Below, in pieces: positions 140 through 63,075 of a stretch of DNA of 64,000 nt. Under the pieces are notes generated by a model that was not told where the DNA came from, did not search any database, and saw nothing but the letters and a program-made list of their open reading frames with translations. The stretch is taken from NCBI RefSeq assembly GCF_988243305.1, contig NZ_OZ547136.1; one strand, 5' to 3'. How positions within the stretch are numbered: position 1 is the stretch's first letter; every line of letters starts with the position of its first letter. The translations under genes and the position numbers were made by a program.

Positions 140-640
<501 letters not shown>

Positions 641-663
641 CTATTTCCCTGCCTCTCCTCCCC

Positions 664-697
664 GAACCGGACGTGCACCTTTCAGCGCATCCGGCTC
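664..697 (-). ncRNA. Group II intron domain V (catalytic hairpin)
   Basis: Minus strand GAGCCGGATGCGCTGAAAGGTGCACGTCCGGTTC: 34 nt, GAGC...GAAA...GGTTC pattern with a perfectly paired stem, about 50 nt before the inferred 3' splice site. Confidence 0.7.
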
Positions 698-702
698 TCC
701 AT

Positions 703-2226
703 TTAAATGCTGGCGAACGCCATTGCCACTTCTGTAAAGCGCGATGTATACGTGTTTCTGGTCTCCGTCCTCAGATAGGGATTACCTTCGGGTAGCCGCC
801 AGCGGAACAGCTTCTTGCCTTGCCCCACCAACCGGTACAGTATTTCGCCGCTGAGCTTGCCGTGATTGGTTTTACCAAATAAAACCCACGTTTTGCTCTG
901 ACCCGGTTTCGGTGATTTACACCACCACCTCATCAGGGAAGCGATACCTGTACGGTATTTGCGGGCCAGCCAGTGAGCCAGCTTCCAGAACACGACACGG
1001 TCGATATAACTGAAGACTTTGGCCTTAAAATCAACGAACTGATAGAACATGGCCCAGCCTTTCAGTTTTCGGTTGAGTTGTTCAGCCATATCGACTTTGC
1101 TTTCACTGTAGTTGCCTGATAACAGTGCTGTCAGCGATGCGGCGAAGTTTCTGGCTTTCTCCTGCGGGATCGTTGAGACCACTCGCATCTCGCCATAACG
1201 ACTGCGTTTGCGAATGATCCTGTGCCCCAGAAAGATAAAGCCGTCATTAACATGGGTGATTTTAGTCTTATCCATGTTCAGCCTGAGTTTCAGACTGCCT
1301 TCGAGCACACCCCGACACTCCTCCCTGATGGCTTCCGCCTGTGCTTTGGTGCCTTTGACGATGAGGACAAAATCATCGGCATAGCGGCAGTACGCCACCG
1401 CGGGTTTCCACTGCCAGTTTTCTCTGACCGCCGTACTTCGGCCCCGTTGGATACTGTTATTCCAGTACCACCGATCTTTTCTGGCTTTCCCGCTCAGGTA
1501 GCGCTCATGCAGGTATTGATCGAACTCATTCAGCATGATGTTCGATAATAGCGGCGATATAGCACCGCCCTGTGGCACACCTTCACTGGCCGCCCGAAAG
1601 AGACCGACATCGATATGTCCCGTCTTGATGGTTTTCCACAGCAGAGTCATGAAACGTGCGTCACTGATCCTGCGGCGTACAGCCTTCATCAGCAGTCGAT
1701 GATGTACGGTGTCGAAGTAACTGGACAGGTCGCCTTCAATCACCCAGCGTCCCCGGGTTTCACCACAGTCTGTGAGCTGTAATTTCACCGTGCGGATCGC
1801 GTGGTGGACACTGCGCTCAGGCCGGAAGCCATATGAGAGCGTATGAAAATCACTCTCCCATATCGGCTCCATCGCCATCAGCATGGCCCGCTGAACAATA
1901 CGATCCCGCAACGCGGGGATACCCAGTGGTCGCAGTTTGCCGTTGCTTTTAGGGATGTAAACCCGTCTGGCGGGCAAGGGCTGGTAGTGGCCTGAGAGTA
2001 ATTCATCCCTGAGGATTTGCAGCTCAACAGCCAGTCTGGCCTGTAGCATTGTTTTGTTCACGCCATCAACGCCGGGGGTATGGGCCCCCTTTGATGAAAG
2101 CGTGATCCGCGCCGCTTCAGCCAGCCATTCTGGTTGTGTTATCAGACGCAGCAGCCGTTGAATCCGTAGGGACGGATCGGTGGCTGCCCATGTGGCAAGC
2201 TTGCGTTGCATTTCGCTGATTATCAA
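703..2226 (-). CDS. Group II intron-encoded protein (reverse transcriptase/maturase)
   Basis: 507-aa ORF with RT motifs (PGVDGV near N-terminus, YADDFV active-site box) and a C-terminal maturase (X) region. No obvious HNH endonuclease motif. Start codon uncertain. Confidence 0.85.
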   Translation of the reverse strand: MIISEMQRKLATWAATDPSLRIQRLLRLITQPEWLAEAARITLSSKGAHTPGVDGVNKTMLQARLAVELQILRDELLSGHYQPLPARRVYIPKSNGKLRPLGIPALRDRIVQRAMLMAMEPIWESDFHTLSYGFRPERSVHHAIRTVKLQLTDCGETRGRWVIEGDLSSYFDTVHHRLLMKAVRRRISDARFMTLLWKTIKTGHIDVGLFRAASEGVPQGGAISPLLSNIMLNEFDQYLHERYLSGKARKDRWYWNNSIQRGRSTAVRENWQWKPAVAYCRYADDFVLIVKGTKAQAEAIREECRGVLEGSLKLRLNMDKTKITHVNDGFIFLGHRIIRKRSRYGEMRVVSTIPQEKARNFAASLTALLSGNYSESKVDMAEQLNRKLKGWAMFYQFVDFKAKVFSYIDRVVFWKLAHWLARKYRTGIASLMRWWCKSPKPGQSKTWVLFGKTNHGKLSGEILYRLVGQGKKLFRWRLPEGNPYLRTETRNTYTSRFTEVAMAFASI

Positions 2227-2882
2227 AGGTCTTCACCTCGTTAGGTCAGTTAATTCACGTCGCAAACACATTCAAACTGCTTCCCTTCGCCATGTAATGG
2301 GCTTTCCCCATCGCGGACTACTACGGAAGCTCCGCCAGCCAGCGCGTCATCGGAGCCATGCCCCCTTAACATCCGTCGCTGACCTTCCCCGGTTTACCTG
2401 CCTGGACTCAGGCATACTGAGGAGGCTGCCCGTCGCACTCTTTATCCTTGCTTGCCGCAAGTTGGCAGAAGTCAGCAACGCAAGTGTGATAGACGCTGCT
2501 GCCCCGGTGTTTCGCATACATGTCAAAACACCTTCGACCGGCAGTGCTTACGTATCACTGCCAGTTCCTCCTGCACGGCCTGTCAGATCACGTAGGCCGT
2601 GGTGACGTTTTCAACCCACAGAGGCGGATTAACGGGTTCATGTTCTTCAGCCTTTCAGTACTTAACCTTGAGGATCATCTCGGCTTAGTGATCTCGCCTC
2701 AATCCCCGTTGTCAGCGGGTTACATCACCCTGCGGGCATGCCGCAGGTCACTGCCGCTCAGGCTCTCCACCGTCACACCCGGTGGGATTGTTGGGTTTCT
2801 CATCGTGAGTTACCGGTTCAATATTCCAGACAGACTCGCGGTTCATTTAAGCATCCATGCCCGCCCTGAACTCCGGGCACAC

Positions 2883-3300
2883 CGTAAGTAAAATCAGCCA
2901 CCCACAGCTGGTCAGGACGTTCTGCCACGCACTGACGGTTTACGCGGTCACCTGTGGCAACGGTTTTCCGGCTGACGGTAGTGCGGACCTTTTTACCCCG
3001 GAGAACACCGGCAAGTCCCATAACCGCCATGAGGCGCGCCACTGTACATCTGGCCACCCTGATTCCTTCCCGTAACAACTGACGCCAGACTTTACGCACA
3101 CCGTACACCTGATGATTTTCATCGTATACGCGCTGTATCTCTCTCTTCAGCCAGTCATCGTGCTGCGCACGGGCACTGCGTTTATCCGGATGATGTCGCT
3201 GTTGCTGACAATGGTAATACGTTGACGGGGCAATATGCAGTTCGCTGCATACCGGTCCGACCCCGTACTGCTCACGCAGCTTATCCAGCAGTGGCATCAT
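2883..3300 (-). CDS. IS3-family transposase OrfB, N-terminal (5' exon) part
   Basis: ORF 2818..3300 reads ...[11 protein letters not shown] then runs into intron sequence. Overlaps orfA 3' end as expected for the -1 frameshift OrfAB arrangement. Confidence 0.75.
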
Positions 3301-3623
3301 TTTTTCCAGAGGCGGTCGAACTCCGCCTTCGCAAAATAAGCGGAAGCCTGGCGAAGGATATCGTTACTGCGGCGCAGTTCACGATTTTCACGTTCCAGCT
3401 CTTTCAGACGCTGACGTTCAGCGGTGGTGAGCCCTCCATCACCGCCCCCGGTATCCCGCTCATGCTGGCGAACCCAGACACGCAGAGTCTCCGGCGTACA
3501 GCCAATCTTTGGGGCAATGGAACAAATTGCCGCCCACTGTGAGTCATACTCATCCTGACTTTCCAGAACCATACGAATCGCCCGCTGACGGACTTCGGGG
3601 GAAAAACGAGTATTTTTAGTCAT
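3297..3623 (-). CDS. IS3-family transposase OrfA (HTH/leucine-zipper)
   Basis: 108-aa [22 protein letters not shown]...[36 protein letters not shown]; recalled as IS629/IS1203-type OrfA. Confidence 0.85.
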
Positions 3624-4023
3624 CCTGTTTACCTCTTTCTCAGGGAGTTTAGTCTCCAGGATTCCCGGGACGGTTCAGTTTCCATTCATGCTTTTAATCT
3701 TTCCCAAAATAACTAAAGCCAGATGTAACAGGCGAACATGGTAAAGTGTCCGCATATTTGAACCTCGCTGATAACGCCTTCACCTGACAACATATTGTCA
3801 GTGCTTCAGCATGTTAAGCTGTTCTTCTGAAAGGTCGGTAAGCTCCAGGACCATATTCCGACTTATCCTGGAAGGATGGCTGGTTCAGACTTCAGGATAT
3901 GGTTGAGGGTTACCTAGTGATGAAGTCTCTTGATCAGGAGATCTGATCAAGAGACAGCACTGGGTGGGGGTGACCATCTCATATCTATGCCTCCATTTGG
4001 CAATCATCAATTTTGACAGAAAT

Positions 4024-4056
4024 AAAGCACAGGGGCTGTTCACATAGCCCCTGTGC
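4024..4056 (-). terminator. Putative rho-independent terminator downstream of MFS gene
   Basis: 10-bp perfect stem CACAGGGGCT / AGCCCCTGTG (4026-4053) followed on the minus strand by a U-rich stretch CTTTATTTCTG. Confidence 0.4.
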
Positions 4057-4138
4057 AGAGCAATTGATAACTCTTACTTTGTTGAAAATTCATTGCAGCT
4101 AAGGTCAATGCCACAACAACAAAGCAAATAAAGATTAA

Positions 4139-5425
4139 TCAGGCTTTATTAGGTAAAGTATTTACCGAATGTGAAATCTTCACTGTCAGTGTAACAACTG
4201 CTGAACACAATAGCGTGGCTATCATAAAGATGAATGCACTGTTGTAACTTCCGTCGCTGCTTTGGATCAACCAGCCAATGACAGGGGCAGAAATAACCCC
4301 AGCCATCTGACCGCCAAAGTTAACGATACCTGATGCTCGCCCCATGATATTACTGGGAATAGTATCCATCAAAATGCCCCAGAACATTGCCATAGCGAAG
4401 AACATAAACAACGCTGAAACACATTGATAAACAACAGCCATATCCGCACTACTTACGCTGAAAGTCAAGTACAGGAACCCTGCAGCAATTACGGAAGTCA
4501 AGACATATAGTGTTTTACGTTGTGGTTTTAATTTATCTGAGCAATAGCCACCTAATAATGTCCCCCCAGCTCCAAATAGAAAGGGGATCGCAGCCATTAC
4601 GCCAGTTTTGGCCAATGAGAATTCACGAACAGTAATTAGATAACTTGGCAACCAAGTTGAAAAGCCCCAGAACGTAATATCAAACAAAAACCAAATGCAG
4701 GCCATCTGCCAAAGTACAGGCATCTTAAGTACATCTTTAAATGCAATATTACTTTTGCCTTGCCCCCCGTCCTGGTTATCTGATGCTAGCTCAACCAGAT
4801 CCTGCTGCGTTATTGCTGGATGATCTTTTGGATTATCACGGGTAAATAACCAGATACCCGCAGCAATAAATAAACCTGGTATACCCAATACGATGAAGAC
4901 CATGTGCCAGCCAAATGCACCGATAATGCTCGCCGCTACAACAACCGCCAGTGCTGGCCCTAAGGTGTTCACCGTAGACTGAATGGCTGTTGCGCGTCCT
5001 CGCTCTTTCGATGGAAAATAGGTCGAAATCATCTTCCATGAAGCTGACGGGAAACAACCTTCCCCTATACCAAAGAAGAAACGAACAATCAGCATTAACG
5101 GCAGAGCAAGTACCGCACCAGTAAGGCTGGTAAATATGGACCACCATGCAATACCAATGGCCATAATTTTCCTTGAGCCAAACTTATCGGCTAACATTCC
5201 ACCGGGAATCTGAAATGCAGCATAACCAATAAAAAAAGCACTAATAATTAAACCTTGTTGTGTTGTATCAAGATTTAAATCTTTGCCAATATAAGGTAAT
5301 GAAACACTCATGACCATTCTGTCGAGAAAAGAGAGTAACCATGCTAACCAAATTAAGGTCAAGACGGTATATCTTGCTTTCCAAAGTTTTGGTTTACCTA
5401 AAGGTAAAGATGTTTGTAGATTCAT
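4139..5425 (-). CDS. MFS transporter, anion:cation symporter (ACS) family-like
   Basis: 428-aa ORF with about 12 hydrophobic segments and MFS signature region ...GGMLADKFGSRK...; last gene of a four-gene minus-strand operon. Confidence 0.75.
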   Translation of the reverse strand: MNLQTSLPLGKPKLWKARYTVLTLIWLAWLLSFLDRMVMSVSLPYIGKDLNLDTTQQGLIISAFFIGYAAFQIPGGMLADKFGSRKIMAIGIAWWSIFTSLTGAVLALPLMLIVRFFFGIGEGCFPSASWKMISTYFPSKERGRATAIQSTVNTLGPALAVVVAASIIGAFGWHMVFIVLGIPGLFIAAGIWLFTRDNPKDHPAITQQDLVELASDNQDGGQGKSNIAFKDVLKMPVLWQMACIWFLFDITFWGFSTWLPSYLITVREFSLAKTGVMAAIPFLFGAGGTLLGGYCSDKLKPQRKTLYVLTSVIAAGFLYLTFSVSSADMAVVYQCVSALFMFFAMAMFWGILMDTIPSNIMGRASGIVNFGGQMAGVISAPVIGWLIQSSDGSYNSAFIFMIATLLCSAVVTLTVKISHSVNTLPNKA

Positions 5426-5502
5426 TGTAATGTCCTTTGAGTGTAACTATCTATCGCGACTCTTTTGGTCGCGATAGATCAATAAGTATTTAACGTAATT
5501 TA

Positions 5503-7098
5503 TTAATATTCTTTTCTGATAACTTTACCGCTACAGGCATAACTTTCCGTACCATTAATTAAGGCGATACGTCCATTGACCATTACAAGTTCAATTCCTT
5601 CTGGATACTGATTTGGCTCTACAAATGTTCCCTTATCTGCAATGGTTTTGGGATCGAACATTACAATATCAGCCGCATACCCAACTTTAAGTAATCCCCT
5701 GTTTTGCAGACCTAATACTTCCGCAGGTTTGCCGGTCATTTTACGAATTGCATCCTCCCAACTTAGGCATCCCTCTTCACGCACATATTTGCCCAGTACA
5801 CGAGGAAAGGCTCCAAACACTCGAGGATGGGGTTTTCCTGCCCCCATTAAACCATCAGTACAGACGTTCTGCTCTGCACGACAGAGGAATTTAATAACGT
5901 GTTCTTCTGTCCCATAGAAATCAACCATTCCTACAGCGTTTTCTTCTTCAAGAAGCAAATCGAAAGTGGCGTTATAGGGATCTTTACCGCGTAATTCGCC
6001 TAACTGGACAAGATTCAAACCTACGGCATCCTGATTTTTGGCAGTTTTCACACTGGTGACAAAAATTTGGTCTAGACCAGCAAAGTCAATAAAGTTATCC
6101 CATCCTGGAATACCTTGCTGAATGTCGTCGATCATTTTTGCACGCAGTTCTGGCGAAGCTAGTCGTTTCAGCAATTTATCCGTTCCTCCGGAATGGACCC
6201 ACGGAGGTAGGATTACACCAAGCATAGTGCTACCTGCAACATACGGATATTGATCGTAAGAGATACGTATTCCCTCTTTCTGCGCCTGTTCCAACATGCC
6301 AAGCATTTGGTCAATAAGCCCCCAGTTTTTCTTCCCACATACTTTCATATGTGATATATGGAGCCACACACCACTAGCTTTGGCTATATCGATTAATTCT
6401 TGGGTTGAATTGATAATATCATCAGCTTCACTGCGCTGATGCACCACAAAGAGCCCATCATATTTCGCTGTGACTTTACATAATTCAATCAACTCAGCAG
6501 TATCGCCAAAGGCGCAGGGCATATAGATAAGCCCAGAGGAAAGACCAAATGCCCCAGCTTTTAACTCCCGCTCAAGGATTTCACACATCTTTGCGACGTC
6601 TTCACGGGTAGAAGGGCGACCATCAAGTCCCATCGCTTCCATACGTACATTACCATGCGGAACCAGATACGCTAGATTTGTTGCTGGATGGTGAGATTCC
6701 AATAGGTTTAGGTATCCATCGGTATTTTTATATTTCCAGTCTATTTTATCGGTATCACCGTCAAGTCCAGCAATATTTTTACGCCAAGCTGGAATATATT
6801 TCTCAGGTAGTGGAGCCAATGCGACACCATCCTGTCCAAGTAACTCAGTAGTAATACCTTGACGTATTTTTGCCGATAGTTCAGGATTTATAATGGCCGA
6901 TAAATCAGAATGTGTGTGTGTATCAATAAAACCAGGGCAAATAATTTTTCCGCTTGCATCAATAAATTGTTCATTCTTACCAACATCAACGTGGCCGATG
7001 GAAATAATATATCCATCATCAACTACCACGTCAGTAATTATGCCCGGACTTCCTGTTCCATCAATAACATTTCCATTTTTAAAAATTGTTTTCATCAT
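5503..7098 (-). CDS. N-acyl-D-amino-acid deacylase (D-aminoacylase) family amidohydrolase
   Basis: ORF with KNGNVIDGTG...FIDTHTHSDL metal-binding amidohydrolase motifs. Start placed at the ATG (7098) preceded by GGAGA on the minus strand. Confidence 0.75.
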   Translation of the reverse strand: MMKTIFKNGNVIDGTGSPGIITDVVVDDGYIISIGHVDVGKNEQFIDASGKIICPGFIDTHTHSDLSAIINPELSAKIRQGITTELLGQDGVALAPLPEKYIPAWRKNIAGLDGDTDKIDWKYKNTDGYLNLLESHHPATNLAYLVPHGNVRMEAMGLDGRPSTREDVAKMCEILERELKAGAFGLSSGLIYMPCAFGDTAELIELCKVTAKYDGLFVVHQRSEADDIINSTQELIDIAKASGVWLHISHMKVCGKKNWGLIDQMLGMLEQAQKEGIRISYDQYPYVAGSTMLGVILPPWVHSGGTDKLLKRLASPELRAKMIDDIQQGIPGWDNFIDFAGLDQIFVTSVKTAKNQDAVGLNLVQLGELRGKDPYNATFDLLLEEENAVGMVDFYGTEEHVIKFLCRAEQNVCTDGLMGAGKPHPRVFGAFPRVLGKYVREEGCLSWEDAIRKMTGKPAEVLGLQNRGLLKVGYAADIVMFDPKTIADKGTFVEPNQYPEGIELVMVNGRIALINGTESYACSGKVIRKEY

Positions 7099-7161
7099 AA
7101 TTCTCCATGACGATGTCACATGGTGACACCGCCTGTAAGGGAAGAGGTTTTATCTTTAAAT

Positions 7162-8346
7162 TTAACGGAGATATAGTGTCTGAATAATGCTGTAATAACC
7201 ACTGGCCGAACCGGTTAATTGCTCGATCTCAATGTACTCATCAATGGTGTGCGCCAAGTTTTCCCGTGAAGGTCCAAACCCAATAGTTTTGATCCCCGCT
7301 TCACCAGCATAGTGGCTTCCGTTTGTACAAAATGAGTACTGCGTGATGGTCGGTGAAAACCCTGCCTTACGAATACCAACCAACGCAGCTTGTACAAATT
7401 CATCAGATTCGTCAAACACCCACCCAGGGAAGAAACGCTCACCTTCAATAGTTGCTCCTGTGTAGCAGGACTCTTGGCCTACTGCGTACGAGACCCGCCC
7501 TTTAAACTGCGGATCGAGGATTGCGAACTCTGCCAGTACACGTTCCAGAGGTGCAATAACGTTTTCTTTCGTTTCTCCGACAAGCAAACGGCGATCGTAA
7601 GTTGCACGGCAGTAATCCGGCACTACTGATGCTCCCGGATATGGCGATGATTTAATGTCTGTTAACTCTAAAATTCCGGGGCCAAGTATCGGATGCATTG
7701 GTGGTACAATGGTACGAATTTTGTCAATTAATTGTGCCATTTTGTAGACAGCATTTATTCCTGCCTGTGGATTGGCTGAGTGAGCTGGTTTCCCAAATGT
7801 TTCGACAACAATTTCAGCGCGTCCACGCTGACCGATTTTCAGGTTTAATTCGGAAGCTTCACCGATAATTACGTAATCAGGTTTAAAACGTTCACTGACC
7901 AAGCGTGCCGCAACACCTTCAAAACACTCTTCATGGACAATACAGGCTACGTAAATTTTGCCGGAAAAATTACGCTGGTAATCCTGACCAAAAAAACCAA
8001 CGGCGGAGATCATAGCCGCAACAGCTCCCTTCATGTCGGTTGCCCCCCGACCATAAATTTTGCCTTCGTCAATATCACCGCCATATGGATTCCGAGTCCA
8101 CATATCTTCGTTTACAGGCACAGTATCAATATGCCCATCCAAAACGAGAGTTTTCCCTGGCTGATTGCCAATAATACCACCAATAATATTGCCATACTTA
8201 TCGATATGAATATCGTCAAACTGGTAATACTGCATCATATCTTTTATGGCATTCACTACATCCCCTTCCTGACCGGAATAGCTTTTTTGTTGGATCAATG
8301 TCTGACAATTTTTAATAACTTCTTTATAACGACTTGCAGATAACAT
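7162..8346 (-). CDS. M20-family peptidase (ArgE/DapE/YgeY-like)
   Basis: 394-aa ORF with HIDTVPV and GRGATDMKG metal-ligand motifs typical of M20 deacylases. Confidence 0.75.
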   Translation of the reverse strand: MLSASRYKEVIKNCQTLIQQKSYSGQEGDVVNAIKDMMQYYQFDDIHIDKYGNIIGGIIGNQPGKTLVLDGHIDTVPVNEDMWTRNPYGGDIDEGKIYGRGATDMKGAVAAMISAVGFFGQDYQRNFSGKIYVACIVHEECFEGVAARLVSERFKPDYVIIGEASELNLKIGQRGRAEIVVETFGKPAHSANPQAGINAVYKMAQLIDKIRTIVPPMHPILGPGILELTDIKSSPYPGASVVPDYCRATYDRRLLVGETKENVIAPLERVLAEFAILDPQFKGRVSYAVGQESCYTGATIEGERFFPGWVFDESDEFVQAALVGIRKAGFSPTITQYSFCTNGSHYAGEAGIKTIGFGPSRENLAHTIDEYIEIEQLTGSASGYYSIIQTLYLR

Positions 8347-8378
8347 GGTGTTCCTCCGTTATTATTTAAATTAGAAAA

Positions 8379-9593
8379 TTACTGCTGAAGTACCGGATAC
8401 TGAGTCCCCCAGACAATATTGCGATATGATTCTGGGTCAGTGTCACCTTCAGTGCTGATTAGCAAAACACGGGAATGTGAATCCAGCCCCAACTGTTCAC
8501 GGGTTTGCCTAAATGTAGGGGAGGTCATCAGTAACGCCAGAAGCCCTGTGGTTACTGCCCCTGACTCTCCAGAAATAATCTGCGGATCTCCTGCTAACGG
8601 ATTTCCCAAAATACGCATACCCAACATTGCAACCTCGTCAGGACAGGAGGCAAAGGCTGTAGCATAGTCACGTAGCAGCTTCCAGCCGATACTGTTAGCC
8701 TCGCCACAAGCCAGTCCTGCCATGAGTGTCTGCAAATCCCCCCCTACTGCCACGGCATTTCCATCTTTCGCCAAGGCTGAGCGGTAGAGGCAATCGGCAA
8801 TTAATGCTTCTACAACGATTACTTTTGGACGATTATCCCCCCAAGCAGCAGTCACCATTCCCTGGACCATACCCGCAAACGAACCAACCCCCGCTTGGAC
8901 AAAGATATGTGTTGGTGCTACCTGATGGAGTTGAGCCATAGCCTCCAGCATCAACGTGCTATAGCCCTGCATGATCCATAGAGGAATTTTTTCATACCCT
9001 TCCCAAGCGGTGTCCTGAACAACAATCCAGCCGGATTTATCTGCCTGCTCTGCGGTCATTCGAACAGCATCGTCATAGTTCATATTGACAATTTCAGCCG
9101 TAGCACCTTCATTGCGAATTGATGACAGGCGTTGTTGCGAAGACCCCTTTGGCATATAAACTACTGCATTTTGCTTTAGCTGACGCGCCATCCACGCTAC
9201 TCCCCGCCCGTGGTTACCGTCAGTAGTAGTAGCAAAGGTAACTGTTTTCAGATAATGGCGCACATCGTCACTAGTCATGATATCAAACGACAATTCATCA
9301 ATCTCTTTCCCTAGTAATTCTGCGATATGACATGCCATGGCATAGGCGCCACCCAGCACTTTGAAGGCTTTTAGGCCAAAACGCTGAGACTCATCTTTGA
9401 GATAGATCTTTTTTATCCCTAATTTTTGTGAAAGCGCAGGTAATGTATAGAGCGGCGTTGGCTCGTAGCCTGGTATTGTCCGATGAAAATTCAATGCTTT
9501 TACCAGCTCATTGTGACTAAATGAAGCTAGTGGTGCGCTAGGTTGCTGAGTAAATTGTGTCTGGTTAATAAAAAAGGATATTTTTTCCTGCAT
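8379..9593 (-). CDS. Diaminopropionate ammonia-lyase-like PLP enzyme (DpaL/YgeX family)
   Basis: 404-aa ORF, fold-type II PLP enzyme with lysine in ...QRFGLKAFKVLGG...; first gene of the operon. Confidence 0.75.
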   Translation of the reverse strand: MQEKISFFINQTQFTQQPSAPLASFSHNELVKALNFHRTIPGYEPTPLYTLPALSQKLGIKKIYLKDESQRFGLKAFKVLGGAYAMACHIAELLGKEIDELSFDIMTSDDVRHYLKTVTFATTTDGNHGRGVAWMARQLKQNAVVYMPKGSSQQRLSSIRNEGATAEIVNMNYDDAVRMTAEQADKSGWIVVQDTAWEGYEKIPLWIMQGYSTLMLEAMAQLHQVAPTHIFVQAGVGSFAGMVQGMVTAAWGDNRPKVIVVEALIADCLYRSALAKDGNAVAVGGDLQTLMAGLACGEANSIGWKLLRDYATAFASCPDEVAMLGMRILGNPLAGDPQIISGESGAVTTGLLALLMTSPTFRQTREQLGLDSHSRVLLISTEGDTDPESYRNIVWGTQYPVLQQ

Positions 9594-9675
9594 GATAAGA
9601 CCTCATTGTACTGGTATCTCGCACCCTGTAATCAGAGAAATCCAAAGATGCCTTCTGTATGACTATTCACTAAAA

Positions 9676-9691
9676 AGCAAAATGCGTACCA
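9676..9691 (-). promoter_or_regulatory. Candidate sigma-54 (-24/-12) promoter for the catabolic operon
   Basis: Minus-strand TGGTACGCATTTTGCT: GG and GC elements separated by 10 nt, near-consensus to TGGCACG-N4-TTGC. About 80 bp upstream of the operon ATG and adjacent to a divergent sigma-54 activator gene. Confidence 0.5.
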
Positions 9692-9973
9692 GTTTTTTAT
9701 TAGAGTTAGTAAAAAGTAACATATATTTCTTTAACCTTTTCATTTCAATGAATTAGGAAGTCATTGCGTCATAATGAATCCCCCTCCCTAGTATTGGCCT
9801 TATTTCAATGCCTGATAAATTCTCATTAATGAGAATTTATGTGATCAATCAAAAGAAAATAATAAAAACACAAATAAAACATATAGATATATTGATCTTT
9901 TTCAAGTAAATTTTTCCTAATATCATATAATTTCTCATTTTTCTGAGAATTTTATACTGACTGGAGGAGAACC

Positions 9974-11719
9974 ATGATTTCAGTACTGAGAAACATTCAG
10001 GATGATATATGTAATTATGCCGATGCTATCTCTGGCATAATCGGAACTGATGTAGAAATCATTGATGAGTCATTAATGCGCATAGCTGGTACAGGTCAAT
10101 ACAGGTATATGCTCAATGAGAGTGTGGTAAAAAATGGTTACATTTATCGGCATGTATTACAGGTACGAAAAACAGTTCTGATCACAAATCCAGGAGAACA
10201 TCCTCTCTGCCAGTTATGTGAGAAAAACCATTATTGCTCGGAAATGTTAGATTTGAACACACCCATTTTTCTCAATGAGCGTGTCATCGGAGTCATTGGA
10301 ATTATTTGCTCTACCCAGACACAGCGTAAAATCTTGTTGAACCAGATTGATAAATTTATTACCTTTATTGAGCAAATTGCTGCGATGATTTCCAGTAAAG
10401 TCTTCGAATGTCTGGAACGCCTGCGGGCCCAAGAAACTCTCAGTACATTTCGTCGATTGATTGATGCGATGGATCGCGGTGTTGTAGCTATTGATGGTAA
10501 GGGCCGAATCTGGCACGCTAACAACTCAGCCGATCGCATACTTAACCGCAAGGTTCAAGGTATTACGTTAACGATTGAAACAACCGGGGACATTCTATAT
10601 GGAGATGAAGAAGCATGGTTGACGCTGGAAGGAGAAAGATACCATGTGTTGTGCAAACAAATTTCTCTTTCCTCATTAGATAATGATCGACTCACCATGA
10701 TTATCTTTCGTGATGCACATGACTATCTGAGCACAATAGTTTATCCTTACGAATCTGATGCTCAAGTGCGATTAATTGGACATTCACCACTAATGGAACA
10801 ACTCAGAAGCACCGTTAGAAAAATCGCCAGTAGTTGTGCCAGCGTACTGATCACCGGAGAAAGTGGCTCAGGTAAAGAAGTTGTGGCATTTGCTATTCAT
10901 CAGAATAGTCCACGTAAATCCGCTCCTTTTGTAACAATCAACTGCGCTGCAATCCCAGAGCAACTGCTGGAAAGCGAGCTATTTGGCTACGTGAAGGGGG
11001 CATTTAGTGGGGCGAATCCTAAAGGACGTATAGGTAAATTTGAACTGGCCAATGGGGGAAGTCTCTTTCTCGATGAGATCGGAGATATGCCGCTCCATCT
11101 GCAGGCCAAGCTGCTTAGAGTTCTTCAGGAAAAAAACATTACCCGCGTTGGCTCTAATAATATTATCAATATTGATGTGCGCATTATTGCTGCGACCAAC
11201 AAAAACATCCGTGAAATGGTTGAGAGTAATCAGTTTCGAGAAGACCTTTATTATCGCCTGAATGTGGTTCCTCTAGTAATTCCTTCTTTACGGGAACGAC
11301 GGACTGATATTGCCCTCCTTGCACAATATTTTGCTGATGAGTTCTCTGAAAGCTATCAACGTCCAGTGAAAAAACTCCCCGATGATATAATTAACCATCT
11401 TTACGCTTGGCACTGGCCTGGTAACATCCGTGAATTACGTAATGTCATTGAGTATATTTTTGTTATGCGTGGTGAAACTACTGATATCAACGTCAGCCAT
11501 CTTCCCCCTTATCTGCTCAATGTAGTGGACAACAGCAAAACTGTTATGACAATCAACACCAAGCAGCTACTGAGTCAGGGAAGACAAGCGGAAAGGAGGG
11601 CAATTGAAACTGCATTACAACGATATAGCCCAAGTGGAGAGGGGAAAAAACAAGCTGCCGCTGAATTAGGAATAAGTATTGCTACACTATACCGAAAGAT
11701 AAAACAATATGGTTTATAG
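9974..11719 (+). CDS. Sigma-54-dependent transcriptional activator (bEBP, YgeV-like) with N-terminal sensor domain
   Basis: 581-aa ORF with Walker [15 protein letters not shown] loop, ELFGY motif and C-terminal HTH (...[17 protein letters not shown]). Divergent from the operon. Confidence 0.85.
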
Positions 11720-11889
11720 GCGAATTTTCTTTATCACACAATATTTAGATAAGCAAATTGAGTAATTATTCTGTAAAGCATTCAGCGAATGCCTGTTATG
11801 TCACAAAAATTATTTACAGATCACATAAGTCATTTTCAAATGGCTTTGACTCTGGAAAAATAAGGTGTGCACTACTGTACGGGGTGAGC

Positions 11890-12895
11890 AACACTGGTGA
11901 TGGCGGGGTATTGTTTCATGAAATGCTAAATAACTGCTCCTAATGCCGCTACACTTTAGCCAGCCCATGTTTTCCACCGGGAAATGGGCTGACGGTATCC
12001 ATAAAGTGACGAACCTTTTTCAACAACTGCCACATTGAACGGCACTGGTGATTTCGGGTTACTGTCTCATGAAGCGCCTGCCATAACCGTTCGATATGAT
12101 TGACCCACGGCGAGTAAACCGGCTGATAAATTATCCTGAACTTCGAGTTTGCTTTCAGCCAGCGCAACGTTTCACGGCTTTTGTGGATGATGTAGTTATC
12201 GACAATGAGTGTAATCGTTTTTGCCCGCCGGTATGTCGCTTTCAGGTGTTTTAACAGACTGATAAATAAGGACGAACCTTTACTGTTCCCACCAACGTAG
12301 CTGACTTTTCCCGTACCGCTGTGCAGCGCACCGGCAAGATAGTACTTTTCATTCTGACCCGGCGTGACAACGCGCTTTTGCTGCCCACGTAGCTGCCAGC
12401 CTGCACCAATTTTGGGATTGAGGTGAATATCCACTTCATCTTCGTAAAACACGGGGTTTTCCGCACAGCATTTCGCCAGTGCTTCATGAATAGCGACCAT
12501 TTTTTCTTCTTTGTGTGGGTCACGGATACGCAGTGTCGGCGCAGTTCTCCGCCATACCAGTCCGGCAGCAGGCAACCAGCGGCATATACACTCGGCAGGT
12601 AATGATTTGTCCATTAACACCCGACTGCGTGAACCAGTTAATCCAGGGTCCAACATAGGAACGGACTCAGCAGAGCATTCTAGCAACATCGCTGACACGG
12701 TGGAGCCATTGCAGTATCACCATAGCAGTCAGTCTGCGGGCATAATTTTTATCGTGTGTTTTGTGGATAGCTTTCTGTATCAGGTGTCGTTCGTTACAGG
12801 GAATTGGCTCTATGATTGGCATAGTTCAGTCCGGTTGGTGATTTGTTTTAATTTGTCGATTGAACAAACGCACAATCCGGGCTGAGTTCCCTCAA
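11890..12895 (-). mobile_element. IS630-family element, apparently defective (approximate ends)
   Basis: Transposase reading frame recognisable in two frames: N-terminus MPIIEPIPCNERHLIQKAIHKTHDKNYARRLTAM... from ATG at 12820-12822, ending at an in-frame TGA; C-terminal DDE part in ORF 11949..12698. Element ends not mapped. Confidence 0.6.
11949..12822 (-). pseudogene. IS630-family (Tc1/mariner-like) transposase, disrupted by premature stop/frameshift
   Basis: C-terminal 249-aa ORF ...DPHKEEKMVAIHEALAKCCAENPVFYEDEVDIHLNPKIGAGWQLRGQQKRVVTPGQNEKYYLAGALHSGTGK...DNYIIHKSRET... The N-terminal segment is in a different frame and stops at TGA. Confidence 0.6.
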
Positions 12896-15010
12896 AGTGA
12901 TCTACTATTCCGTGCAGCTATTTAGATCAAGGCTAAGGCAGGAATTTTATGTAATTAATGCTAGAGGTAAACGTTGTGGGTAAATGGTTTGCATGGTTAA
13001 TATTTAACCATAAGGAATAAGAGGTATTGCAGAATTAATTCCGTATAGTTATTCTTCTTGTAAGAAGATTTTTGGGTGCTAGTGATAAATTACAGAGCCT
13101 ATAGAAATGTAAAGTAACAAATCACAGAATAAGGATACAATAGCATAATTTATTGTCACACAAAGCCCCAAGACATTCTGTAATAAAAGGAATTTCCATA
13201 AGAAGAACCATTGACAATAATATGAGCACCACCATTGTAGAGATATTTATTTATGACTGAAAAGGAACTCCAAAATTTGGCTATTTCTATATATGAAAGG
13301 CAACGAGAGAAGTTATCACGTGAGACAGAGTGTAATAAATCTACCTCAATAAGATTTGCCCTAGAAGATTTCCTAAAGAATGCTCCGAAACGTATGCGAT
13401 CTGCGCGTGCTCGCCCCCCAGGGTAATAAATGTCGCAAACTCTGATAATATTTTTATGAAAACAAGCATATTTACAAACGTAAACTAATGATTCTAATTT
13501 GACAGAATATAAACTATAAGTATTAATAAATACCATACGGAGCAGAAAAAAATATCAAAATGAGTTAATTTGATTAGAAAGATTTATCCCATTTATAAAG
13601 ATAATTGTAGAAAGATTCATTGACTCTAAGAGCAAATAAGGAGAGGGCATACAGGATATAACTAGTACTCATAATAAAAATCCCTCTACCGATATAAGTA
13701 AAATTTATTTCCCAGACGAGTTTTTAATAATACATATCAGAAACAGTGCTAAACGATGGGCCGTAATCCTCATGAATAGTAACTCATGGTTATTTTACAC
13801 TGGATTATCGGTGGGGTAATTCTGATAATAGAAACACCTGAAAAACTAAAATCATTAATTTTAAAATACAACCATATACTCATCAAACTCTCGATACACC
13901 ATTCTTCTTTTAAAGTAAAGAAAAACTCTATCTGTGCTTATGTTCCACAACATAAATAGAATAAAAAAATTAAGGATTTATATATTAAGAGTGAATTTAC
14001 ATTTTAGGCTAACTTTAGTACATATTAATTATTGTTTCTTATTAATTTTAAACTTCAAAAGCTATATCAAGGGTTGCCACTTCTATCTGCGACTAACAGC
14101 ATATCTATCAGCAACAATTGATTAATTCCAGCACCTCATGTCGGCGCGATCTGGTGGAAAAGCCATTCCACCAAAACAACCCCAAGCGCTGGCACGTTGG
14201 GGAGATCTGCACTGTGAACCAGCTGGCAATGAGCCGCTTTATTATCGAGTTCGGTGACCGCCTAGACGGTCACTTCTGAGAAAAGGCATTTACACAGAAT
14301 CCTAAACCGGCTCGCAGGTTTCCCCCACTCCCCATCCGCACTCAAGTTCAGACGGCGAATAACATAGCTAATCAGCTCATTACGGAATGACTACCATCCA
14401 GATAGTGTGCCGCAGTTTAAGGTTCGGTCAACCGCTTTTTAACCATTCAGCATTGCCTACAATACAAATAAGGAGCCTTATATTATGCCTAATCTCTGTA
14501 TGCTGCATAGTGCCGGGTGCCTCCCGGTGAGTCCAGCCTGGTGTCTCTGAACCCGCATAGAAAGGATTAGGGTAATATAAAAACAAACACCTGTTACTGA
14601 TATGCTCCGCCGCTTAGGGGAGTTCACCATACATTTTTATTTTTAACAAAAAAGCTCAAGGCGACAATAATAAATACTATAAAATGTGAGCAGCATAACA
14701 TTTTAACTTAGTAACTAATATTCACTAAACTTACCAATTCACATACGCCCCACGGCATGGCAAAGCTTCGTTACGTTAGTTTATACCACATAGGTATTAT
14801 TACCAAACTAAATAATCACTTTACGCTCTGTATTTTGCCTGTTTTCACTGCGGTTTTTCTCAATACCCCGTCCAGAATAACGTTAACACATTATTAACTT
14901 AAATCCGGAGAACATGATGATGACTGGATTCAAACACACTTAACATGAATATCCTCTATCCATTAAAATAACTGTCATTGAGCCGGTTGAAAAAACGAGA
15001 TGAACTATAA

Positions 15011-15184
15011 ACAGATCTAGCAGTGGCATGGCTGGCGAATGGCGTTATCAATCCACTGCCTTTACTGAGTGCTGAATATCCCTTCACTGACCTGGAAGAG
15101 GTGCTACGTTTCGCCGGTGATAAAACCCAGGCATCAAAAGTCCAGCTTGTTTTCTTAGAGATAAATAAAGGAATAATACAATGA
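15011..15184 (+). pseudogene. idnD: 3'-terminal remnant of L-idonate 5-dehydrogenase gene
   Basis: Short in-frame stretch ...AWLANGVINPLPLLSAEYPFTDLEEVLRFAGDKTQASKVQLVF... resembles the IdnD C-terminus. Its stop overlaps the idnO ATG (ATGA). Everything upstream is replaced by AT-rich DNA. Confidence 0.45.
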
Positions 15185-15800
15185 ACAAGCAATTTTCACT
15201 GGCAGAAAAAATATCTTGATTACCGGATCAGCACAGGGCATTGGCTTTTTACTGGCAACCGGTCTGGGTAAATATGGCGCACAAATAATTATTAATAATA
15301 TTACTGCCGAACGCGCATAACTTGCTGTAGAAAAACTCCACCAGGTGGGTATTCAGGCCGTTGCCGCACCTTTTAATGTTACTCATAAACATGAAATTGA
15401 TGCCGCCGTTGAACATATCGAAAAGGACATCGGCCCCATTGATGTGCTGGTGAATAACGCCGGTATCCAGCGCCGTCATCCTTTTACTGAGTTCCCTGAA
15501 CAAGAGTGGAATGATGTGATCGCAGTAAACCAGACCGCCGTGTTCCTGGTGTCGCAAGCGGTAACCCGTCACATGGTTGAACGCAAGGCAGGTAAAGTTA
15601 TTAATATTTGCTCGATGCAAAGCGAACTGGGACGTGGCACCATCACCCCTTATGCCGCATCGAAAGGGGCGGTAAAAATGCTCACCCGCGGCATGTGCGT
15701 CGAGCTGGCGTGCCACAATATTCAGGTCAACGGTATTGCGCCGGGCTATTTCAAAACAGAAATGACTAAAGCACTGGTTGAGGACGAAGCCTTCACCGCC
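15181..15800 (+). pseudogene. idnO: 5-keto-D-gluconate 5-reductase (SDR) gene, inactivated
   Basis: ATG at 15181 reads MNKQFSLAEK then hits a stop after 12 codons. SDR frame resumes in another frame (ITGSAQGIGFLL...) and contains an in-frame TAA at 15318-15320. The SDR catalytic region is intact in ORF 15345..15863 but the 3' end diverges. Confidence 0.6.
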
Positions 15801-15805
15801 TGGTT

Positions 15806-16003
15806 GTGCAAGAACAAATTTCCATTGCGGGTTTTTATGGGCTGGAGATTGGCAGGCAAATGATCCCAAGCCTCGCCAGCGTAATTACTCCCCGTTTTGA
15901 TATTGGTCGGATGGCCGCCCAAATGTTGCTGAGCAAAATTAAGAATAACGATCACAACACTGTTGACCTCGGGTATCAGATTTATCACTGTAACACGCTT
16001 TAG
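15806..16003 (+). pseudogene. idnR: 3' remnant of LacI-family regulator gene, fused downstream of idnO remnant
   Basis: ORF ...[55 protein letters not shown] resembles a LacI/GntR-type C-terminus. The transporter gene expected between idnO and idnR is missing. Confidence 0.4.
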
Positions 16004-16080
16004 GTTATTTTCTCTTCATTACACGTATTCTCTTTGCCGGACGTTGCCTATACTCCAAGCAGGAAACTGGAGGAAATCTC

Positions 16081-16745
16081 ATGAGCGCCTCCCTGTTAAT
16101 TGCCCGCATGCCAATACGGTGGGGTGGGATATCTTTGGCGAGAAAGGCCATCCGGTGCGGGCAACGGTTTCAGACCTAGGGCCACTGTTGCTGGCGTGGC
16201 TGTTGAATCTCAACGATGTGCAGTCTGGCGTGCTGGATATCATTTTCCGCATTGCTGATGATCAGGGATTGTTGCTGCTCGACTTTAAAGATCTGCGGGC
16301 AATTACCCAGTACATCGGCGATAACGCCAAATCCTTCCAGAATCAGTACGGTAATATCAGTAGCGCATCGGTTGGTGCCATCCCGCGCGGATTACTGTCG
16401 CTGGAGCAACAAGGCGCAGAGCATTTCTTTGGCGAGCCGATGCTGGATATCAAAGACTGGATGCGCACCGATACCAACGGTAAAGGCGTTATTAATATCC
16501 TCAGCGCCGAGAAGCTTTATCAGATGCCGAAACTGTATGCAGCCAGTCTGCTGTGGATGCTCTCGGAGCTGTATGAACAATTGCCGGAAGCGGGCGATCT
16601 GGAGAAACCAAAACTGGTGTTTTTCTTCGACGAAGCGCATCTGCTGTTTAACGATGCAGCACTGGTACTGCTGGATAAGATTGAGCAGGTGATAAGGCTT
16701 ATTCGCTCAAAAGGCGTTGTCGTCAGAACGGCTTCCCCTGTGTGA
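16081..16745 (+). pseudogene. yjgR: DUF853/HerA-like ATPase gene with internal deletion and 3' truncation
   Basis: ATG at 16081 encodes MSASLLIAR then shifts frame. ORF 15963..16745 carries the central region (...[24 protein letters not shown]...[17 protein letters not shown]...) but ends prematurely with unrelated residues. Confidence 0.55.
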
Positions 16746-17258
16746 CAAAGCCATAGCTCAGGTGCGTGCGGTCCGCACGGCGCGGAGCCTGAGGGCTTCA
16801 CGGCGGAGGATATGCGGACCATCGGGCGCTACCTGCACTGCGAGGCGAATTGGAACATCGACTCGGACTTGAGCCTGTGAGGGGGGCCGTCCTCGGGAGA
16901 AGTTTTTCTGCGAAATAACTATGCGCCGACGGACGAACACTCGTTCGTGTGGCCTATGGCCCAGGGCAAAGGCTGGGGGGCCCCTATTAAGTTGTCAAGA
17001 ATGTTTATTACACCAGCGGGGTATAAAAAGTACCGTCACGCATCATGGCGAATAGAACGTCGCAGCGCCTTGTTCACAGTGTTTTCACTCGTGGTTATCT
17101 GTACCCGTGAATATCAGACCATTGTCACCAGCCCATGCCTGTAATTCTGTCAGAATGGCTACAGCCTGTTTGTTGGGTGGTACAAGATGCAGTGCCCTCT
17201 GGTTCCCTCTGATGAGAGTCCTGGCGGGGTGAACAAATAAAAAAGAAAACATAAATAA

Positions 17259-17321: not shown

Positions 17322-18503
17322 TCAGGTCTGCTCAGAAAGTGAATCAATGTAGTCAGCGTACCATTGCATCATTTCACGGCGACCATCGAGATACTGTGCG
17401 TGGTTATAGGTACCGCGCATGATGTTTTTATCAACATGGGCAAGCTGGAGTTCAATCCAGGCAGAGCTGAAATCATGGTCATGGAGAATGGTACTGAAAG
17501 TATGCCGAAAACCATGAGCTGTAGTGAATGTATGCCAGCCAACTTGTTGAAGAAACTCATTGATGCAACCACGGCTACGAGGTTGATTACCCCTGTATAC
17601 ACCAGGAATAACCAGATCTGAGTTACGGGGATTTGTGATTATTTTTATATCTTTCAATAACATTTGAGCCTGATGAGAAAGAGGAACAACATGCGGCCTC
17701 CGCATTTTCATTCTCTCTTTTGGGATTACCCAGAGGGCATTGGTAAAATCAATTTCATCCCAAGTAGCCAGGCGTAATTCTCCCGTTCGAACAGCAGTCA
17801 GAACCAGTATCCGCGTTACCAGAGACATAAAATTTCCTGAAACTTTCATTTGGTACATGAAAGCTCCTAACTGTTCTTCAGATAGCATCCGTCTCTGCTG
17901 TTTTTCAGGATGCAGAACAACACTGCTGAGAGTCGATGCTGGGTTAATAGTGGCGCGCCCCGTCGCAATGGCATAATCAAATATTTGAGAACAGAGCTGA
18001 CGAGTCTTACGTAACGCTTCAAGTTTGCCATTCCTTTCAATAACCCTCAGTGCATTCAATATTTCCAAGGGGCGAATATCAGCCACAGGACGCTTCCCTA
18101 GCGTGGGATTAATATGATTCTCGAATCTTGCACGCTGGTCCGCTAAATAACCCGCAGTCCAACGACAAGCCATATGTGTGAACAACTCTTCTGCAAGAGT
18201 ACAAAATGTGCATGCAATACTTTCTCTTAGTGCATGTTTACTCGCCTGTTTTTCATATGAAGGATCTTTTCCTTCAGCCAGGAGTTTACGTGCGTCATCC
18301 CGTTTCTGACGCGCCAGAGCCAGTGATATGCCTGGATAGACACCAATCACCAATTTCTTTTCTTTACCCGCAAATCGATACTTCAGATTCCAGTAACGAG
18401 CGCCAGATTTCTTGATAAGAAGGTAAAGTCCTTGACCATCAGAAAGTTTGTAATCCTTGTCAGCGGGTTTGGCCGACTCAATTTGTCGAACAGTAAGTGG
18501 CAT
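17322..18503 (-). CDS. Tyrosine recombinase, P4-type phage/island integrase
   Basis: 393-aa ORF MPLTVRQIESAKPADKDYKLSDGQGLYLLIKKSGARYWNLKYRF... with C-terminal catalytic region ...HGFRHTFSTIL...LAHVDKNIMRGTYNHAQY (R..HxxR..Y). No tRNA gene adjacent. Confidence 0.85.
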   Translation of the reverse strand: MPLTVRQIESAKPADKDYKLSDGQGLYLLIKKSGARYWNLKYRFAGKEKKLVIGVYPGISLALARQKRDDARKLLAEGKDPSYEKQASKHALRESIACTFCTLAEELFTHMACRWTAGYLADQRARFENHINPTLGKRPVADIRPLEILNALRVIERNGKLEALRKTRQLCSQIFDYAIATGRATINPASTLSSVVLHPEKQQRRMLSEEQLGAFMYQMKVSGNFMSLVTRILVLTAVRTGELRLATWDEIDFTNALWVIPKERMKMRRPHVVPLSHQAQMLLKDIKIITNPRNSDLVIPGVYRGNQPRSRGCINEFLQQVGWHTFTTAHGFRHTFSTILHDHDFSSAWIELQLAHVDKNIMRGTYNHAQYLDGRREMMQWYADYIDSLSEQT

Positions 18504-20583: not shown

Positions 20584-20891
20584 AGATACCTCCTCGACGG
20601 CTGACTTTGTGTGCTCTCCTCTGTGATGATCTTCTGATTTAATTTTAATCAATGATAAAGAAGTTGATGGTGACCATTTCTGATGCAGTTGTTCAAAAAA
20701 ACACCATGATGAAGTGTGATGAACTCCAAATCAGCGGTTTAGAGGTTAATTGCGAAAGGGGAGATTTATTTCGGCTCTGCCCTTGAGTTTAGCGGGGCAT
20801 ACAAGTACTATAACGCGTCATTTTTCAGCCGACCTTTAACACGTTCCTTGCCTCCCCGGGATTCGGCTGACCCAGACAGGAGGCTGAATAA

Positions 20892-21305
<414 letters not shown>

Positions 21306-32582: not shown

Positions 32583-32771
32583 CAGGGACATCCTTTTATC
32601 ATCGGGAATACGAAAGAAAAGGGAGAATAAACGCCTTACTTATAGAACAGTGAAGAATGCCACAATTTTACGCTTTGAAAATGATGACACTATCACAGTT
32701 GGCGCATTCATTAACGATAGGGTATAAGTAAAACAATAAGTTAACACCGCTCACAGAGACGAGGTGGAGAA

Positions 32772-35995: not shown

Positions 35996-36194
35996 ATCTT
36001 ATCCGACCTTTCAGGCCAGATCCTCGGAAGGGGAAGTTGATTAATTTGTGTGAAATACACATTGAAAGCCGATTCGAAGAAAGTGAACCGGCATTTTCAG
36101 TGGCTAGTATAGCGTAAGGTACTGTAAAGTCGCCAGAGGGTTAAAATTCAGACTGCTGATAAATGCAATACTGCCTGATGCGCTATGCCAATCA

Positions 36195-46470: not shown

Positions 46471-46600
46471 GGGTTGCTATGCCTGATGCCGATTCGTAGG
46501 CCGGATAAGGCGCTCGCGCCGCATCCGGCGGTGGTGCGCTGAAGCCTGATGCGACGCTTACCGCGTCTTATCATGCCTACTGGGAGCACGCTTTACACCG
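46471..46600. repeat. REP/BIME palindromic units
   Basis: GTAGGCCGGATAAGGCGCTCGCGCCGCATCCGGC and ...CTGATGCGACGCTTACCGCGTCTTATCATGCCTAC REP consensus copies. Confidence 0.7.
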
Positions 46601-52710: not shown

Positions 52711-52865
52711 TTCGGCCTCAGCCTGATATAGTGTGCGTAGGCCGGATAAGGCGTTCACGCCGCATCCGGCATTTGAGCATAGTGCCTGATGCGACGCTTG
52801 ATGCGTCTTATCAGGCCTACAGGTGCACCGCATCCGGCAAACCATACTCACATCAACAACGAAAA
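52711..52865. repeat. BIME/REP cluster
   Basis: Several REP units: GTAGGCCGGATAAGGCGTTCACGCCGCATCCGGC, GCCTGATGCGACGCTTGATGCGTCTTATCAGGCCTAC, ACCGCATCCGGC. Confidence 0.75.
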
Positions 52866-62699: not shown

Positions 62700-63075
62700 T
62701 GTTGTCCTGTAACGTGTTGTTTAATTATTTGAGCCTAACTTTACCCGTGCATTCAGCAATGGGTAAAGTCTGGTTTATCGTTGGTTTAGTTGCCAGCAGG
62801 TATTATATCGCCATAGATGCTACGAATATTATTGGATTCTCCTTATTATTTGCGGCGCTTTTTTCACTTACCGGAGGTTATATGGAACCTGATCCCACGC
62901 CTCTCCCTCGACGGAGATTAAAACTTTTCCGGTAAGCCCGTCTTTTCACGGCGTTACCGGATGCGTAAGGCCGTGACGTTTTAACGTCCCTGCTCAGCTT
63001 TATTACCTTCAGGTAAGGCTTCGCCACGCCTGAAGACATTTCTGTACTGTTTCAGACAGTGCGGAGGGACTCCTT
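62700..63075 (+). promoter_or_regulatory. mgtA promoter and Mg2+/proline-sensing leader region
   Basis: Long 5' leader between treR and mgtA containing the short proline-rich mgtL ORF. Confidence 0.6.
62882..62935 (+). CDS. mgtL: mgtA leader peptide
   Basis: 17-codon [20 protein letters not shown] ending about 140 nt upstream of mgtA. Confidence 0.7.

Follow-up and report, generated by a model that had tools for sequence, protein, structure and literature searches.

Analysis of a 64,000-nt stretch of DNA (the window; NCBI RefSeq assembly GCF_988243305.1, contig NZ_OZ547136.1) indicated that a sigma-54 -24/-12 element on its minus strand, at 9676..9691, is very probably the functional promoter of a four-gene operon, activated by a YgeV-family protein whose gene lies divergently on the other side. 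The comparative evidence was decisive for this reading, because the element is conserved in exactly its consensus bases across orthologous copies of the five-gene cassette formed by the operon and the activator gene.

The element, TGGTACG-CATT-TTGCT, was identified by direct reading, consensus match and conservation. TGGTACGCATTTTGCT runs along the minus strand from 9691 to 9676, within the wider minus-strand read 5'-CTGGTACGCATTTTGCTTTTT-3'. Its GG lies at 9690-9689 and its GC at 9678-9677, separated by exactly 10 nt, and 11 of the 12 specified positions of the consensus TGGCACG-N4-TTGCW are fitted. The five bases before it, AAAAC, also fit the extended consensus mrNrY of published compilations. 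From the last base of the element, 82 nt lead to the A of the ATG at 9593 that begins the first gene of the operon (open reading frame (ORF) 8379-9593, minus strand), and the divergent activator ORF starts at 9974, 282 nt away on the other side. An earlier note on this DNA had claimed this minus-strand sequence at 9676-9691, with the canonical 10-nt separation of GG and GC, a near-consensus match and a distance of about 80 bp to the first gene. The sequence and coordinates are exact, and the measured separation, match and distance agree with the claims. By standard sigma-54 geometry, transcription would begin about 12 nt past the C of the GC (9677), at 9663..9667 on the minus strand. A start near 9665 would give a leader of about 72 nt.

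The cassette was compared in 11 copies, that of the window and those of 10 other genomes. One of these (L001) came from a contig scan with the regulator, and the others (L081-L088 and L090) from exact-protein look-ups. The contig scan was dominated by the generic AAA+ pattern FLDEIGDM, and yielded L001 as its one close locus, along with a small number of distant loci of the YgeV family. Relatives of the regulator with 62-85% identity were found in Citrobacter werkmanii, Entomohabitans, Salmonella Oranienburg, an E. coli assembly, Pragia, Budviciaceae, Leminorella and Proteus, and relatives with 55-61% identity in two Betaproteobacteria. The five genes stand together in each of the 10 other genomes, and the flanking genes differ throughout. 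Because the five genes are always together while their neighbours differ, the cassette moves as a unit.

The best GG-N10-GC upstream of dpaL, the first gene of the operon, lies 70-83 nt from the ATG across all 11 copies, except for 112 nt in L090, and these elements fit 9-12 of the 12 consensus positions. In an alignment of the nine enterobacterial spacers (A1), the pattern TGG.A......TTGC was invariant, so that 8 of the 12 specified positions were unchanged, compared with none of the four spacer positions. The stretch between enhancer and promoter contained 2 invariant columns among 134, with an identity to the window of 33-49%. This pattern is the footprint that would be expected of a sequence read by sigma-54. 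All 11 cassettes thus have an element facing the operon in this position while its flanks and its N4 drift, which supports the promoter claim of the earlier note.

The four minus-strand genes downstream of the element look like one operon, because the gaps between them are short (32-77 nt) and a terminator-like hairpin follows the transporter gene. Gene 1 (8379..9593, 404 amino acids (aa)) encodes a 2,3-diaminopropionate ammonia-lyase of the DpaL/YgeX type by its match to TIGR03528 (589.5 bits, cut-off 532), and its product is 52% identical to K-12 YgeX. Gene 2 (7162..8346, 394 aa) encodes a YgeY-family M20 hydrolase, assigned by NF009555 (476 bits, cut-off 321) and by the Pfam M20 and dimer domains, with 31% identity to K-12 YgeY. 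Gene 3 (5503..7119, 538 aa from a GTG) encodes an amidohydrolase of the D-aminoacylase family (Amidohydro_3), as seen in Pfam and in PDB matches to D-aminoacylase 1M7J (E = 8e-79) and to 3GIP/3GIQ (E = 3e-74). Its orthologues are 528-533 aa long, and the true start may lie a few codons downstream of the GTG. Gene 4 (4139..5425, 428 aa) encodes an MFS transporter of the anion:cation symporter type, with 236.7 bits to MFS_1 and a TIGR00893 match (E = 1.6e-75) that is below the cut-off and so denotes a subfamily resemblance only. The hairpin with its T-rich tail (4017..4056, minus strand) has an 11-bp stem with 8 G-C pairs, folds from 4056 to 4027, lies 83 nt past the stop codon of the transporter gene and is likely the end of the operon. 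In the two betaproteobacterial cassettes, a RidA-family (Ribonuc_L-PSP) gene follows the transporter gene (L088, 386-763; L090, 6772-7152); such a gene fits the removal of the reactive enamine produced by an ammonia-lyase.

On the other side of the spacer, the plus-strand gene at 9974..11719 encodes a sigma-54 activator (bacterial enhancer-binding protein) of 581 aa, a paralogue of YgeV, identified by domain and motif searches. It contains a Sigma54_activat domain (PF00158, 244 bits), the AAA lid and a C-terminal Fis-type helix-turn-helix domain (HTH_8), together with Walker A (GESGSGKE), Walker B (FLDEIGDM) and the sigma-54 contact loop GAFSGA. The N-terminal sensor region has a CxxCx6C motif at residue 79 and a weak PAS match, and homologues give GAF-like Pfam hits there. 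Over 596 aligned positions, the activator is 38% identical to K-12 YgeV (E = 1e-138), along the full length and including the sensor. The loop carries Ser for Thr of the canonical GAFTGA in all 12 regulators examined (11 linked to a cassette and the ygeW-linked one of L089), which argues for purifying selection. The CxxCx6C motif is also common to the 12 regulators and to K-12 YgeV, and could be a metal or redox site. No NCBIfam equivalog scored above its cut-off for the activator; the best was PrdR, with 407 bits against 795 and a match to the C-terminal 334 residues only. The gene is therefore, as the earlier note had it, that of a complete sigma-54 activator, with all functional motifs present. 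The same note's label of a catabolic operon is right on the family matches of the four genes (ammonia-lyase, M20, amidohydrolase and MFS). Its tie between regulator and operon is upheld by their linkage in every cassette despite varied neighbours, and by conserved palindromes at enhancer distance.

These palindromes are the only two perfect ones of their type in the 64-kb window. The proximal enhancer block, GATCACATAAATTCTCATTAATGAGAATTTATCA (9813..9846, no strand), was found by inverted-repeat search and conservation. It includes a perfect 26-bp palindrome at 9815-9840 with the core TTCTCA-TTAA-TGAGAA (9820-9835), whose centre lies at about -162 from the predicted start. In A1, 21 of the 39 columns of the block are invariant. 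Nine of the 11 loci have a TT[A/C]TCA-N4-TGA[T/G]AA palindrome between -150 and -164; Proteus L087 does not, nor does betaproteobacterial L090, whose sole such palindrome has an N7 spacer and lies at about -120. The distal palindrome, TTCTCA-N6-TGAGAA (9932..9949, no strand), lies at about -275 and 24 nt before the regulator ATG, a distance kept at 23-28 nt throughout the nine Enterobacterales copies. Within the half-site, the third base is A or C, often changed in both arms at once (TTCTCA/TGAGAA versus TTATCA/TGATAA), and such mirrored changes are what an operator bound by a dimer should show. The conserved palindromes are thus likely binding sites of the activator. The distal one is probably a second such site, through which the regulator probably also controls its own expression.

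Taken together, these features suggest how the promoter would work. Sigma-54 RNA polymerase would bind GG and GC (9690-9677) and remain in a closed complex that does not open by itself. Activator dimers would bind the palindrome at about -162 and the second one at about -275. A ligand would trigger the N-terminal sensor, and the activator would then assemble into an ATPase ring, reaching the polymerase by looping of the A+T-rich spacer, possibly with the help of IHF. The GAFSGA loop and ATP hydrolysis would open the promoter, and transcription would run from near 9665 to the hairpin near 4027-4056. The distal palindrome, overlapping the promoter or leader of the regulator gene, would provide the autoregulation. 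The sequences, their position and conservation, the domain content and the synteny were observed directly; in the scheme, binding and looping are inferred, as are the transcription start, the inducer and the substrate.

Several observations weigh against this reading, one being that the K-12 YgeV regulon is nearly silent in laboratory conditions (PMC10602906), and three alternatives were considered. One is that the element is a chance resemblance without function in A+T-rich intergenic DNA. Across the whole window, 1 match with at most one mismatch was found against 1.07 expected, that is, about one per 64 kb, and at least one occurred in 59 of 100 shuffles. The consensus match by itself is not significant at the 64-kb scale. 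Matches with up to two mismatches were about as frequent as chance predicts (12 found against 13.5 expected), and the looser pattern of the earlier note was found once, with 0.14 expected. On the operon strand of the 380-nt spacer, however, only 1 of 2000 dinucleotide-preserving shuffles reached 11 of 12. Taken alone, the sequence match is suggestive, and what places the element beyond chance is its position and its conservation in the orthologous loci. In these 11 loci, both the position and the consensus-specified bases are kept, although the surrounding DNA has near-random identity. A chance origin therefore appears very unlikely, and for practical purposes it may be excluded.

The promoter might also be ancestral and real in the family but defunct in this copy, to which we give a slim chance. 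The cassette sits in an island crowded with insertion sequences (IS), flanked by IS630, a group II intron and fragments of IS3, so this copy could be decaying. When the cassette (4000-12000) and its spacer were compared with 5,426 complete E. coli genomes and PLSDB, the IS630 end was the only match, meaning that the island was missing from both collections. The -24 box has changed from C to T at the fourth base, the sole mismatch to the consensus. In most orthologues a further palindrome, the second proximal one, lies at about -132 to -146; in the window copy it is degenerate or not detected. In contrast, the five ORFs of the cassette are all intact and of full length, and both remaining palindromes are perfect. 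The fourth-base T is common to four cassettes, since TGGTA also occurs in the Citrobacter, Entomohabitans and Salmonella copies, and for this reason it counts as an inherited, tolerated variant. A further alternative, which we consider unlikely, is that sigma-54 polymerase does bind and another activator (host YgeV or NtrC) dominates, or that the operon is mostly read by sigma-70. The half-sites of the TTATCA/TGAGAA type are shared among YgeV-family loci, making cross-talk with host YgeV conceivable; however, the palindrome has an N4 spacer here and N3 in YgeV-proper and Firmicute loci. Control by NtrC would suit a pathway that releases ammonia, but none of the 11 spacers holds a site that matches the NtrC pattern TGCACC-N5-GGTGCA at 9 or more of its 12 positions. 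A sigma-70-like pair, ATTACA-16-TACAAT (9 of 12), lies at 9632-9605 inside the predicted leader. Such a pair is expected at chance frequency, its -10 hexamer does not recur as such across A1, and its use would leave almost no leader and place the start atop the ribosome-binding site. The co-inheritance of regulator and operon in every genome, with varying neighbours, also argues against another dominant activator. We therefore prefer the reading of the element as a sigma-54 promoter under its own divergent activator.

The spacer and leader contain other features. An invariant GATCACA, which holds a Dam GATC, abuts the proximal palindrome (9840-9846) and may represent a further ATCA-type half-site. 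Another conserved block, AATCAAT.TATC, lies nearer the regulator gene, at about 9881-9897. Neither block matches the CRP or IHF consensus in full, and GATCACA was rejected as a full CRP site because the expected left half 6 nt upstream is absent and not conserved in A1. An IHF-like site, TTTCAATGAATTA (9743..9755, plus strand), matches 8 of 9 positions of WATCAANNNNTTR at about -84, in a stretch of 69% A+T that separates enhancer and promoter. L083 and L084 have homologous sites of 8/9, and Proteus has one of 9/9 at -60; four loci have no match of at least 8/9, and the intervening DNA is 61-78% A+T. The site at 9743..9755 is thus a weak candidate for IHF binding.

Within the predicted leader, an imperfect inverted repeat (9624..9647, minus strand) might fold into an RNA hairpin some 20-40 nt from the transcript start. 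A potential hairpin, of differing sequence, is present in the leader of most orthologues. With the hairpin drawn by hand, 71% of cells were paired as against 33-47% in slid controls, and covariation was not above that of shuffles. RNAalifold gave no consensus structure on the orthologous leaders. A search of 9400-10100 against Rfam, with E up to 1, returned no match, which places the leader outside the riboswitch and leader families known there. The Shine-Dalgarno sequence GAGG (9601..9604, minus strand) stands 7 nt before the ATG at 9593, and both GAGG and ATGCAGGA are conserved in alignments A1 and A2. For the regulator gene, the sigma-70 scan gave TTTTCA-16-TATCAT (9899..9926, plus strand, 9 of 12), whose predicted start falls inside the distal palindrome. 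With sigma-70-like matches about as frequent as chance predicts (19 found against 19.6 expected), it counts as a weak candidate for the regulator promoter.

The overall arrangement of the cassette is that of well-known sigma-54 systems. In prpR-prpBCDE, atoC-atoDAEB and NtrC-glnAp2, a GG-N10-GC element is combined with palindromic enhancers more than 100 bp upstream, an A+T-rich stretch or IHF bend, and an adjacent activator gene. The cassette shares this architecture and differs from these textbook pairs in its sensor, a Cys-motif GAF-like region plus PAS, and in its operator sequence. Literature searches that paired dpaL with rpoN or sigma-54 turned up no mention of this cassette.

The closest likeness is to the ygeV locus of E. 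coli K-12, which also has a divergent sigma-54 activator, homologous over its full length, and an operon with YgeX and YgeY homologues. In the K-12 ygeV/ygeW spacer, TGGCACACTTATTGTT lies 90 nt before the ygeW ATG, compared with 82 nt between the cassette element and the dpaL ATG. Upstream of this sigma-54 element is the sequence ATCACA...ATATCA-ATA-TGAGAAT, related to the motifs of the cassette. Reitzer and Schneider (2001), as cited in PMC10602906, identified predicted sigma-54 promoters upstream of ygeWXY. Genomic SELEX (systematic evolution of ligands by exponential enrichment) showed that the RpoN holoenzyme binds the ygeV/ygeW spacer (PMC8743547). In spite of this likeness, the cassette is a paralogue and not an orthologue of the K-12 locus. 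Its first gene is dpaL instead of ygeW, and the place of ygeW, hyuA and yqeA in the K-12 operon is taken by genes for an amidohydrolase of the D-aminoacylase type and an MFS transporter. A tblastn search with K-12 YgeW and HyuA against all cassette loci found nothing, and family scans found no carbamate kinase family among the four operon genes, YqeA not being a tblastn query. The activator loop is GAFSGA in the cassette and GAFTGA in K-12 YgeV, the -12 box is TTGC instead of TTGT, and the palindrome spacer is N4 instead of the N3 of YgeV-proper and Firmicute loci. The cassette is also carried on a mobile island of 42% G+C, unlike the K-12 ygeV locus.

We also examined the distant YgeV-family loci, namely those of Enterobacter sp. 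Bisph1 (L006), a metagenomic ygeW locus (L089), Sedimentibacter (L004) and Ruthenibacterium (L002). They have a sigma-54 element matching 10-11 of 12 positions just upstream of the first diaminopropionate-pathway gene. Palindromes of the TTATCA-N3-TGATAA type were present upstream of the sigma-54 elements in L002 (1730-1770), L004 (8860-9030) and L006, and none was found in L089. By the same criteria, the upstream region of K-12 xdhA had neither element nor palindrome. The palindromes of the Firmicute and Enterobacter loci suggest a family-wide YgeV operator motif.

The enzyme set of the operon resembles the end of a pathway described for the reductive breakdown of uric acid. Its end steps lead from 2,3-diureidopropionate through albizziin and diaminopropionate to pyruvate, and are carried out by YgeX and YgeY together with YgeW or the D-aminoacylase homologue UacY (PMC12507026). 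The D-aminoacylase homologue (PF07969) takes off the 2-ureido group of 2,3-diureidopropionate, the M20 enzyme YgeY removes the 3-ureido group of albizziin, and YgeX converts diaminopropionate to pyruvate (PMC12507026). This UacY-YgeY-YgeX lower branch (C. difficile and E. coli) comprises the same three enzyme families as the cassette, gene 3 belonging to the family of C. difficile UacY (PMC12507026). The rest of the pathway, however, does not accompany them: SsnA, XdhD, YgfK/UacX and HyuA were found neither in the island of the window nor beside any orthologous cassette, and the cassette stands alone with its own transporter and regulator. Because UacY, YgeY and YgeX types are combined with a transporter without the upstream genes, the cassette would work by itself on ureido- or acyl-diaminopropionates taken up by the cell. 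The operon products probably import 2,3-diaminopropionate that is N-carbamoylated (or N-acylated) at position 2 and/or 3, which would be stripped to diaminopropionate and then converted to pyruvate and ammonia. Candidate substrates are 2,3-diureidopropionate, albizziin or another N-acyl- or N-carbamoyl-diaminopropionate. Albizziin is also a plant amino acid.

The island itself spans 4000-17230, and the G+C content is about 42% over 4,000-16,000 and about 52% elsewhere in the window. Its borders are formed by IS elements and by a P4-type integrase gene (17322-18503) that lies beside ulaEF/rpsF. The cassette is bracketed by IS3 fragments with the group II intron on one side and by IS630 on the other. 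On the IS3 side, at 613-3623, the intron lies within an IS3-family element, with a reverse transcriptase/maturase ORF at 703-2226 on the minus strand and the Rfam family Intron_gpII at 613-699. The IS3 parts include an ALIL frameshift pseudoknot (3226-3342), transposase pieces (2818-3623) and an rve core (140-586). On the other side, a gene assigned by family match to an IS630-family transposase (11949-12698) begins 230 nt past the regulator stop codon. Farther along, a full-length match to the small RNA family STnc100 (14464-14662, minus strand, 103 bits) lies among short ORFs without a family match, and a fragment of a HerA-like helicase gene (15963-16745, plus strand), covering profile positions 92-295 of 502, is probably a remnant. 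No tRNA gene was found in the window, including the island edge. Beyond about 17,230, the rest of the window is ordinary E. coli chromosomal DNA, with the integrase next to ulaEF-rpsF and then the tamAB/cpdB/cycA region. This part contains the core E. coli RNA elements RpsF leader (20828-20912), ES239 (32583-32705), STnc450 (36057-36114), two naRNA4 (46499-46577 and 52740-52817) and the Mg riboswitch (62867-62982). E. coli carries rpoN.

A broader interpretation, which we offer tentatively and consider rather doubtful, is that the five genes form a self-sufficient, horizontally mobile unit for the salvage of ureido-diaminopropionates, namely 2,3-diureidopropionate or albizziin. Its YgeV-type protein would sense that metabolite, and TT[A/C]TCA-N3-4-TGA[T/G]AA would be the operator of the YgeV family from Proteobacteria to Firmicutes. 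If this were true, the ureido-diaminopropionates would be end products leaked by reductive uric-acid degraders, and cross-talk with the resident YgeV uric-acid regulon would be possible where the host is E. coli. The enzymes suggest a scavenging route for these compounds that is tied to the recently described reductive uric-acid pathway. In other respects, the element is a standard sigma-54 promoter and an ordinary case of a known type of switch. The analysis provides a confident regulatory assignment for an unannotated five-gene island cassette, consisting of a probable sigma-54 promoter, a YgeV-type activator and a candidate operator. With four targets and its own transporter, the cassette would be a simpler system than the large E. 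coli ygeV cluster in which to find the ligand and the DNA site of YgeV-type sensors. The main value lies in a clean regulatory annotation and in a candidate operator motif for a family, that of YgeV, which is poorly understood.

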